Part shown: piece by piece, positions 3,001 through 6,000 of the stretch
How the letters are laid out: each line of letters begins with the position of its first letter
Position numbering within the stretch: position 1 is the stretch's first letter
Virus record (IMG/VR): IMGVR_UViG_2630968639_000003
Length of the DNA stretch: 6,119 nucleotides
Reading direction: 5' to 3' (one strand)
From: a virus
Taxonomy: Duplodnaviria > Heunggongvirae > Uroviricota > Caudoviricetes
Program-made: the position numbers

Positions 3001-6000
3001 TTATCCCACAGCAGTTTCACCCTGCCATTAACCACCTTCTCCACCAGCTCTTCCGCCACGATCTGACGCGCCTCTTCTTCCGAAAAAATGTCGGGGTTAT
3101 CCGGAAAACGGACGGTATACGGGGCGGCTTCACTGACAGAGACCACTGGCAGGGCAAAACGGGCGTACAGCATTTCCTTGACGGTATCGGAGCCCACCTC
3201 ACACAAAAACACACCACGCTGGTTGCGCTTTTTGGGCATGGTGATCACCGGCTTGCCGTACACCGATGCCCCTTTTATGGGAAGCACAAAAAAAGTGCCG
3301 TGTTTCCTGGAACGCTGATACACAATGTCCTGGTCGATACCACCGGTATCCCAGCAGACACGGGAAATGGAAATTTCAGTACCGTCAGCATGACGATATT
3401 TTTTCCGGATCACCGTATCAACACGTTTAAGGGTGTCCTCGTCTTCCGGTCGCCCCATGATAATTTGCTTATCAATCAGAAAGGCTTCTTCGCCGGGAGC
3501 CCAGCCCCAGACATAAATTTCATAGCGATCTTTCTGGGAGTCGATCCCGGCGGTCAGGTAAACCACCCGCAGGGGAACCTGCGCACCATAGTGGCAGACT
3601 TTTTCCAGCAACAACTCAAAGCTCAGTTTTTCTGCCACGGCCTCTTCATAGGGCTCCCCGAGCGTGGTGTTAATAAACGTCTTAACACCGTTCGGATCCT
3701 TCAGCGCATCCAGCCAGTCATAAACAATCTGTACCCAGGTGGTGAACGGACTGTACGCTGTCCACACGTGGTACGTGATTGAGCGCGGTGGCGGCATCTC
3801 CTCATCACCGGCGCTGTAAAATGCCAGGCCGTCGCGCGTCCACATCCCGGTATTGTCACAAATCCAGCGCCCGTCGGTCTGGTCAAGTTCCGACTGCCGG
3901 ATCACACAGCCATTATGTTCACACAGGTAATACACCGTTTCCGGTTTACCCTTCTCCCATTTCAGGCCAAACGGCGTCGCATCATCGCCAAACTTCAGAT
4001 ACTGGGCCTCCCCGCAATGAGGGCAAGGGACATAAAACCGCATGAAATGCGCAGATTCATTCGCGGCTTTCTCAATCTGGCAGGAGCCTTTAATTTTCGG
4101 CGTTGAGCCGCGTATGGATTTAGGCCATACCGAGCCTTCGATACGTTTATCGCCAAGCAGCGTCGGCGAGCCTTCTTTTTCCACATCCGGTTCAAACGAG
4201 GAGAGTTCGTCATAGCAGACCACATCCACAGATTTTTCACGGTAGTTTTTAGCTGCGGCACCGCCCAGGCACCAGAACCCCACGCCGGAGGAAAAACGCT
4301 TCAGGGTAAGTGTATTATCGCGGTGCTTTCTTCCGTACCATGGAGCCAGCTCCAGCAATGCAGGGACATCCCTGATCGTTGGCTCAACATGAGATTTCAT
4401 GAAATCTTCTGCCGCAGAATCTGTTGGCTGAAAAAGCAGACTGTTACGGGATTTATGCTCAATAAAATAAGCCTCCACCCCCAACAGCATTTTGGTGTAA
4501 CCAACGCGCGCCGATTTAATCAGATTAACGGTGCGGATCCGGTCATTTCCCATGCTGTTCATAATGGCAACCTGAAACGGCAGGGTTTCCCATTGTCCGG
4601 GAGTGTATGAAGATTCTTTCGGCAGATAATAATGTTGATCAGCCCACTGAACCGTCGTCAGTGGAACCGGAATATTGAGAGATAAAAGCCCTGTAGCTAT
4701 CGCACCGGCTGCATTAGCTGCCTTCTGTGCGTCTGAAATCATCAATCCACCTGCCCACGTTTTCACCGGCTTTAGCTGCAACATTGGAGGCTTTCGCGAT
4801 TTCAGTTTTCACCACATCAAGGTGTGATGGTGAAATATCCGGATATTTACGCTGTAATGTCAGCGGCACACGTACAAGTATCCCCGAAATCTCCTGTGCC
4901 ACACGTTGCAGAATGAAGGTAAACAATTCCGTTTCCAGCACCAGCCCTTCTTCACGGGCATTTTTCAGCTCCTGTGCGTCAGCCTGTGCTTTGGTGAGCC
5001 GGTAGCGTTCATAGTCAATGGTGCCGGGTTGTAAATCTGATTCTGCAGCCGCACGCAAATCTTCCAGTTCTTTGCGGAGCTTTTCGTTTTCGATATCTTT
5101 TTCCCGCTGCGCATACCACTCAATGGCTTCTGCAGTATTGAACATGGCTTCGATACCTTTGCCTCCCCCCGACAAAACTCTCAGCCCCTGACTTTGCCAG
5201 CCAGTGATTGTTCTGACATCGCACTCAAAAATTTCCGCCAGTTTCTTTTTGTTAACCTTCACGGCACATATTCCTCACAAAAAGAAGAAAGGATCTCAAA
5301 ACGCTTTTTTCAGCGAAAAATCACCGCTGCCAGATCCTTTCTTTTTTTTAAGAAAACCCTATTAAACAACAGGTTAGCCAGAAGAAGAACGGATCTGCTT
5401 TTTCCCTGAAAATTTTCATAAATAGCGCGTTTTTGCGCGTCCCCAGACCCTCGGTGTTTCAGGTTCTGGAAAGGACCCATAAAAAAGAGAACAATTATCA
5501 TTGCATTGAAGACATCAATCTTGTTGTATTGCCACAAATCAGGGCCATTAAACAAACATGTCAAAGAATAACAATTCAAAGTGACCTGCCAATTAATAGG
5601 CCTGATAACTAATTAATGATATTTCCGTTTTCCCGCTAGAATATGTTCTATAATGCAGGATAACTTTTGTATTTTCATTCAAAGCATTAATTATTGATTG
5701 TTTTGATATGTCTGGAAATTGGTTTTGAATATCAGCAACCAATGTTTCAAGATAAAGATCAACCTCTCTGCGCGGTGGTACACAACATAAATTGTATAAA
5801 TAGTTATTAACTATATTCGTAACATTTCTCATGCCCACAATGCCTCATGATAAAAAATATTAACCTGTATTCACTCCTGATATAATATCATAAAAAAAAT
5901 CCAACTTATCCTTTCCATCAAAGTGGTAATGACTCCAACTTATTGATAGTGTTTTATGTTCAGATAATGCCCGATGACTTTGTCATGCAGCTCCACCGAT

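Follow-up and report, generated by a model that had tools for sequence, protein, structure and literature searches.

A lambda-type cos site with GATC-containing R cores in an Escherichia coli prophage, assigned by sequence comparison to the Gifsy-1 recognition class

The DNA analysed here, a stretch of 6,119 nucleotides (nt) from the virus record IMGVR_UViG_2630968639_000003 (Caudoviricetes; hereafter the window), represents, on its minus strand, the left arm of a lambda-like prophage, with intact open reading frames (ORFs) for the small and large terminase subunits TerS and TerL, for gpW and for the portal protein. On the same strand lies a complete lambda-type cos, consisting in order of a cosQ-like element, cosN, R3, an I1-like site, R2 and R1, followed by the Nu1-family small terminase gene (Table 1). 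Each of the three R repeats contains GATC, the target of Dam methylation, as had been noticed in an earlier reading of the window made from its sequence alone (the sequence-only reading), which took the changed repeats together with a changed DNA-binding helix as a sign of distinct packaging specificity and raised the possibility of packaging that is sensitive to Dam. From the comparisons described below, the region is very probably the cosB packaging-initiation site of a lambda-like prophage and a member of the recognition class of the Salmonella phage Gifsy-1.

Table 1. Features of the cos region and its neighbourhood in the window (bp numbers are counted from the putative cosN nick).
Feature	Position in window	Strand	Basis or remark
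cosQ-like heptamer GGGTCCT	5472-5478	minus	identical to lambda GGGTCCT
Putative cosN cohesive-end sequence GGTCTGGGGACG, bp 1-12	5438-5449	minus	alignment with locus L009, lambda and Gifsy-1, plus partial two-fold symmetry
I2-like AT-rich block ctatttatgaaaatttt, between cosN and R3	5409-5425	minus	identical to lambda bp 25-41
R3 CAGATCCGTTCTTCTTC, bp 53-69, GATC at bp 55-58	5381-5397	minus	repeat match
I1, IHF-like site AAACAACAGGTTA, bp 74-86	5364-5376	plus	one mismatch to WATCAANNNNTTR
R2 CCAGATCCTTTCTTTT, bp 105-120	5330-5345	plus	opposite orientation to R3 and R1, a layout shared with lambda and phage 21
R1 GAGATCCTTTCTTCTT, bp 153-168	5282-5297	minus	repeat match
12-mer AGATCCKTTCTT, three copies	5385-5396; 5332-5343; 5285-5296	minus; plus; minus	exact search of window
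Small terminase subunit TerS, Nu1 family, 182 aa	4714-5262	minus	PF07471, E = 3.4e-85
Recognition helix RTITGWQS of the winged helix-turn-helix, codons 17-24	5191-5214	minus	helix limits from PMC9026076
Large terminase subunit TerL, gpA family	2826-4784	minus	Pfam GpA_ATPase and GpA_nuclease
gpW	2613-2822	minus	
Portal	1045-2616	minus	
IS1A end	5922-6119 (L243 20491-21188)		~475 bp upstream of cosN

The repeats themselves are unambiguous. The 12-mer AGATCCKTTCTT occurs three times in the window with zero mismatches, whereas shuffled sequences gave a mean of 0.07 matches and reached three in 0 of 200 shuffles, and the minus, plus, minus orientation of the copies is the direct-inverted-direct arrangement of R3, R2 and R1. 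GATC is present at all three places named by that reading (5292-5295, 5333-5336 and 5392-5395), with no other GATC between 4641 and 5756. Because the density of GATC over the whole window is ordinary (26 observed versus 23.4 expected), the signal is the repeat and not an enrichment of GATC; likewise, the three GATCs are copies of one repeated core and so amount to one event instead of three independent ones.

The lambda reference NC_001416 has the R sites GGCGTTTCCGTTCTTCTTCG (R3), the reverse complement of GAAAAGAAAGGAAACGACAG (R2) and TGTCGTTTCCTTTCTCTG (R1), in agreement with the core CGTTTCC and the flanks that the sequence-only reading had given for lambda. That reading had allowed that the lambda R sites might turn out to hold the same GATC cores, but lambda cosB contains no GATC. 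The repeats read AGATCC(G/T)TTCTT here and GTTTCC(G/T)TTCT in lambda, and the presumed recognition core in the window, A54-G55-A56-T57-C58-C59-K-T-T-C-T64, differs from that of lambda only at bp 54-56, where GTT is replaced by AGA.

The register of R3 relative to lambda is fixed independently of where cosN is placed, since the I2 block is identical in the two. The position of R3 matches both lambda R3 (bp 50-65) and the annotated R3 of phage 21 (50-65), the coordinates of the I1-like site are those of the annotated I1 of phage 21 (74-86), and the small terminase gene starts at bp 188, so that the cos layout as a whole departs by no more than 1-3 bp from lambda and from the sites annotated in phage 21. 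The cosQ-like heptamer, which is kept in all related loci, begins 29 nt before the putative nick, compared with 30 nt in lambda.

We infer the nick positions at cosN, and hence the 12-nt cohesive ends, from sequence alignment, for which the segment of locus L009 used was caccgag-GGGCGGCAGACG-cgcaaaaacg. Of the 12 positions of the cohesive end GGTCTGGGGACG placed in this way, 6 would differ from lambda GGGCGGCGACCT, among them positions 3 and 5 in the left half; the putative nick is preceded by the dinucleotide AG and not by CG. This cohesive-end observation also covers the loci L001, L006, L007 and L235, the last of which, a Salmonella relative, has GGTACGTGTACG in the same frame. The left half of cosN and the flanking CG are under selection (PMC4669245). 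Many lambda-type cos sites, including that of lambda itself (L246, 48483-48486) and those of L013, L054, L066, L067, L071 and L102, have a conserved GATC located between cosQ and cosN in the context ccgg(t/c)GATCcg; the window lacks it.

The small terminase gene has a GTG start preceded by a GAGGAA Shine-Dalgarno sequence at 5271-5276, and the same ORF is present in the RefSeq annotation. Its product is 88% identical to phage 21 gp1 and 53% identical to lambda Nu1. Residues 1-54 align to the solved DNA-binding domains of Gifsy-1 (PDB 7LXS), lambda (1J9I and 7LW0) and phage 21 (7LWR), and this domain is 74% identical to 7LXS; no paper was found for the entries 7LXS, 7LWR and 7LW0. The recognition helix reads RTITGWQS in the window, RTIQNWQE in lambda, RTIERWQS in phage 21 and RTVTAWQS in Gifsy-1, such that residues 20, 21 and 24, which are Q, N and E in lambda, are T, G and S here. 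The difference from lambda in the helix-turn-helix to which the sequence-only reading had drawn attention is therefore real (lambda N-terminus MEVNKKQLADIFGASIRTIQNWQEQG, helix stretch FGASIRTIQNWQEQ), while the wing residue K35 is conserved between the two proteins.

In lambda coordinates the GATC occupies bp 55-58, bp 57 being the T of TCC here and in lambda alike, which places the Dam-target adenine of the top strand at bp 56 and that of the bottom strand opposite T57. PMC4669245 and PMC9026076 report that the TerS domain contacts bp 55-63 of R3 and that packaging is affected by mutations at bp 56, 58 and 59; in these accounts bp 56 is read by residue 24, with residue 20 lying near bp 59. 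According to the same papers, bp 56 discriminates lambda from phage 21, the lambda residue E24 favouring T:A at this position and clashing with the G:C of phage 21. In the Gifsy-1 class bp 56 is A:T and carries a Dam-target adenine, so that methyl groups would point into the major groove at the very place of discrimination by the helix. Taken together, comparison strongly supports a packaging specificity of the Gifsy-1 class that would differ from the specificities of lambda and phage 21.

To place the window among its relatives, Nu1-family loci were gathered from viral and genome collections through protein homology and also through look-up of exact proteins; the full-length protein served as query, as a 70-aa query confined to the DNA-binding domain gave only fragments. 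For each locus we recorded the helix and the best upstream direct-inverted-direct repeat triple, with GATC not used as a criterion. Across ~90 distinct loci, the helix class predicts the R core in every locus with a repeat triple, and no locus mixes classes. Helices of the form RTIQNWQ(E/D) go with the lambda-type core CGTTTCC, RTIERWQS goes with the phage 21-type core C(A/G)TGTCGG (CATGTCGG), and RT(I/V)(T/S/M/G)(A/G/T/S/V)WQ(S/N/G) goes with NAGATCC, the Gifsy-1 type to which the window belongs. Alignment with lambda, 21 and related loci, the check that the sequence-only reading had proposed, thus found helix and core co-varying without exception. Two parts of that reading's interpretation hold, namely that these are the TerS-binding repeats of a lambda-type cosB and that the change in the core accompanies the change in the helix; its treatment of the feature as peculiar to this DNA does not, since the element is, judged by sequence, an ordinary lambda-type cosB whose recognition class is known from Gifsy-1.

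The reverse comparison gave the same result. An exact search of viral contigs for AGATCCGTTCTTCT returned 120 places, 41 of which have a Nu1 gene within ~300 bp downstream, and all 41 of these Nu1 genes encode a Gifsy-1-class (T-type) helix. The conservation of GATC was assessed in 16 lineage representatives with diverged spacers, four of which were found through an R3 pattern, so that R3 is constrained in those four. GATC is intact in 46 of the 48 R sites; both losses are in R2, as AGTTCC in L007 and as ACTTCC in the Providencia type (L183/L086). The lineages that diverge most have differing bases 5' of GATC (TGATCC, CGATCC, GGATCC), with GATC itself kept.

In a sensitive DNA search of the phage collection, only two records matched over both cosB and the DNA-binding domain: SerU-LTIIb, a partial prophage (94-96% identity), and Gifsy-1 (74.6%). 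The class is present at near full length in 38 of 5426 complete E. coli genomes, and it occurs also in Salmonella, Citrobacter, Klebsiella, Kluyvera, Enterobacter and Providencia. Two candidates for a cultured E. coli phage of this class were rejected: IdasGreatGrand is of the 21 class, and PhiR5_1 (L245) belongs to yet another class, with the helix RTIDRWQT and with R sites CATGTC(A/G)(G/T)T that are 21-like in their 5' half. A census of Nu1-family proteins also brought up many further helix variants (ERWQT, ERWQM, VERWQE, VQRWQE). By this measure of sequence, Nu1-type phages seem to have a far greater diversity of packaging specificity than the three classes documented so far.

Along the cos and terminase region, the DNA is 50-68% identical to phage 21 over bp 1-345, and identity stands at 93-98% beyond about codon 50. 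Because identity jumps at this point, cosB and the DNA-binding domain were exchanged as one unit onto a phage 21-like terminase body, as is expected if the two must match. Beyond the overall similarity of its TerS, phage 21 shares S24 and the coordinates of the I1-like site with the window; in contrast, its R core is C(A/G)TGTCGG, its helix has E20 and R21, and its module of cosB and DNA-binding domain is, at the lower identity given above, a different cassette. The resemblance to lambda cosB and gpNu1 extends over family, layout, the I2 block, bp 57-65 of the R sites, the wing residue K35 and the cosQ heptamer, and the differences are those at bp 54-56, in the helix, in the GATC and in the cohesive end.

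Gifsy-1 (TerS STM2609) is the closest of the known systems, having CAGATCC in R3, R2 and R1, the same R3-I1-R2-R1 layout and 79% identity over the whole TerS protein; the helices of both fit RT(I/V)T(A/G)WQS. It differs in its cohesive end, which is GGGCGGCAGCGT compared with the putative GGTCTGGGGACG of the window, and in a fourth GATC (L004 520-535) 7 bp upstream of the R1 GATC (GATCGCAGATCC). This fourth GATC is not conserved, as some close relatives have GGTC there. The window prophage further differs from Gifsy-1 in the phage 21-like remainder of its terminase and in the combination of lambda-like heads with a P2-like contractile tail. The N15/Monarch cosB is likewise a lambda-like cos with a Nu1-family TerS and a recognition class of its own, but with another R sequence and another helix, and the window has the complex three-R form. 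One relative, L064 (IMGVR_UViG_2529293040_000025), resembles N15 in having a single-R "simple" cosB: its one R site, aaatcaGATCctttctggttcc, ~30 bp upstream of the Nu1 gene, looks like a fusion of R3 and R1, and I1 and R2 are missing, making it a natural example of an unequal R3 x R1 crossover. Such a crossover was reportedly proposed by Feiss as the origin of the simple cosB of N15.

If the region functions as its anatomy suggests, small terminase dimers would use their winged helix-turn-helix domains to bind R3 and R2, a bend that IHF induces at I1 would lie between the two bound sites, and R1 would serve as a third site. TerS bound to cosB would then anchor TerL, the nuclease and motor, which would nick cosN ~40 bp away. 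The conservation of GATC would be explained by its being an integral part of the sequence that TerS reads. All known hosts of the class are enterobacteria and Dam-positive. The R sites would therefore be methylated in the lysogen on A56 of the top strand and on the adenine opposite T57 of the bottom strand, so that TerS must at least tolerate the methyl groups.

A prophage of the porcine E. coli strain ETEC1746, located at the Rac attachment site (intR/xisR next to ttcA), matches the window with 100% identity. In this prophage (L243) and in that of strain STEC309 (L005), lambda-like head and terminase genes are paired with a P2-like contractile tail set comprising sheath, tube, baseplate V/W/J/I and late control protein D, and the prophage occupies the Rac site together with recE, recT, kilR, sieB and ralR. 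In ETEC1746 (L243) the interval from the Q antiterminator to cos holds no holin or endolysin genes, and the prophage copy in this strain is probably lysis-defective, though cos and the terminase are intact. An 81-aa ORF (5593-5838, minus strand) in the AT-rich DNA that separates cos from IS1 has no Pfam match and is absent from the RefSeq annotation of ETEC1746. Toxins are carried as cargo by close relatives, immediately upstream of cos or of the lysis genes: SerU-LTIIb (L001 1733-2882) has the A and B subunits of LT-IIb, and STEC309 (L005 7999-9217) has a scabin-related ADP-ribosyltransferase together with a subtilase-family B subunit.

A rival reading is that packaging is gated by Dam, that is, that the methylation state of the R-site GATCs alters the affinity of TerS and that cos is cleaved only in one methylation state. 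Two versions can be envisaged, one like P1, in which full methylation is needed, and an inverse one, in which under-methylated fresh concatemers are preferred over the fully methylated cos of the resident prophage. We consider such gating unlikely, though well worth entertaining. The narrower proposal, that methyl groups on A56 and opposite T57 are read by T20, G/A21 and S24 and that packaging in the Gifsy-1 class starts only in one methylation state, is slightly more doubtful again. In favour of gating, the Dam-target adenine is bp 56, which on genetic evidence sets the specificity of lambda versus phage 21 through residue 24, both targets lie inside the bp 55-63 contact zone, and the small residues at helix positions 20, 21 and 24 (T, G/A and S versus Q, N and E in lambda) could accommodate N6-methyl groups. 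There is also the precedent of P1 pac, a site of seven TGATCA/G repeats whose cleavage depends on methylation (PMC10028697). The likeness of the window to P1 lies in the multiple GATC-containing repeats within a terminase recognition site; P1, however, packages by the headful from pac, and neither this mode nor its unrelated PacA/PacB terminase, its seven hexamer repeats or the Dam that it encodes is present in the window. Methylation reportedly controls P1 pac cleavage (Sternberg and Coulby 1990). The retention of GATC in 46 of 48 sites across the 16 lineages, with the 5' base free to vary, also speaks for gating, but the same counts show G55 at 98% and A56 at 96%, no more conserved than T61-T64 of the core at 94-100%, and two lineages have lost GATC in R2. 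Since the conservation of GATC does not exceed that of the remaining core, TerS recognition alone explains it, and the extra conservation that would have pointed to selection for the Dam site itself was not seen. None of the annotations of Gifsy-1, of the ETEC1746 prophage between its tail genes and int, or of the 12 kb shown upstream of cos in the STEC309 relative includes a phage DNA methyltransferase, whereas P1 encodes its own Dam. According to a review, Gifsy-1, unlike ST64B, is not Dam-responsive, a statement that concerns excision and not packaging (PMC12455584). A GATC would arise by chance in a ~10-bp core in ~3% of cases per specificity class, which is not negligible because at least five helix and core classes exist (lambda, 21, N15, the Gifsy-1 type and the PhiR5_1 type). 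The literature searched yielded no paper linking cosB to methylation and no prior statement of the Dam idea; the Gifsy-1 cos has already been aligned in papers of the Feiss laboratory, which make no mention of GATC or methylation. Sequestration by SeqA was dropped as a further candidate, since spacings of 41 and 59 bp separate the GATCs and the additional GATC that Gifsy-1 has beside R1 is not conserved. Dam control of packaging is therefore weakly supported and, on the whole, neither supported nor refuted, and we offer it as a testable hypothesis of rather low probability and not as a finding.

Several observations weigh against assigning the region to a working cosB with a specificity of its own. 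The R sites are identical to lambda at bp 57-65, and partial cross-recognition with lambda is possible, by analogy with the N15 terminase and lambda DNA. The repeat-triple finder gave no clean triple for several 21-type loci and for L102 and L103, and these loci were excluded as evidence. The IHF-like match at I1 is not significant when taken alone, with 10 such matches in the window versus 5.3 expected. Because a lysis cassette is missing and IS1 lies so close to cosN, this copy of the prophage may no longer produce phage. The shared bp 57-65 and the ability of the N15 terminase to package lambda DNA, although the differences there are much larger (PMC4669245), would fit a region that has the same functional specificity as lambda, the changes being compensated or the outcome of neutral drift and the lambda-type and Gifsy-1-type terminases packaging each other's DNA. 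We regard this as improbable, given that helix and core classes covary without exception, that cosB and the DNA-binding domain were transferred together as a cassette, and that the changed positions include bp 56, where, according to PMC4669245, a single difference contributes to a >1000-fold discrimination between lambda and phage 21. That the repeats are non-functional remnants in a decaying cryptic prophage is more improbable still, to the point of hardly deserving weight: the IS1A beside cos, the missing lysis genes and the frameshifted TerL of a close relative all point to decay, but the TerS, TerL, gpW and portal ORFs of the window are intact, and the three R cores are perfect 12-mers that are conserved across many lineages, including the inducible phage Gifsy-1. 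The assignment to a cosB of the Gifsy-1 recognition class is thus the reading that we retain.

Experimentally documented specificities are limited to lambda, 21 and N15 (PMC4669245). By sequence comparison, the Gifsy-1 type would stand beside these as a fourth class, widespread in prophages of E. coli, Salmonella, Citrobacter, Klebsiella, Kluyvera and Providencia, with a simple readable code that relates bp 54-56 to residues 20, 21 and 24 of the helix. Between phages the class travels as a cassette of cosB and DNA-binding domain, which bears on the mutual mobilisation of prophages, satellites and toxin-carrying elements; relatives of the window prophage carry an LT-IIb or ADP-ribosyltransferase toxin next to cos. 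If the Dam proposal were true, this would be the first epigenetic control of cos-phage packaging, one that uses the Dam of the host instead of a phage enzyme, and dam status and replication rate would determine prophage yield in Salmonella and pathogenic E. coli.

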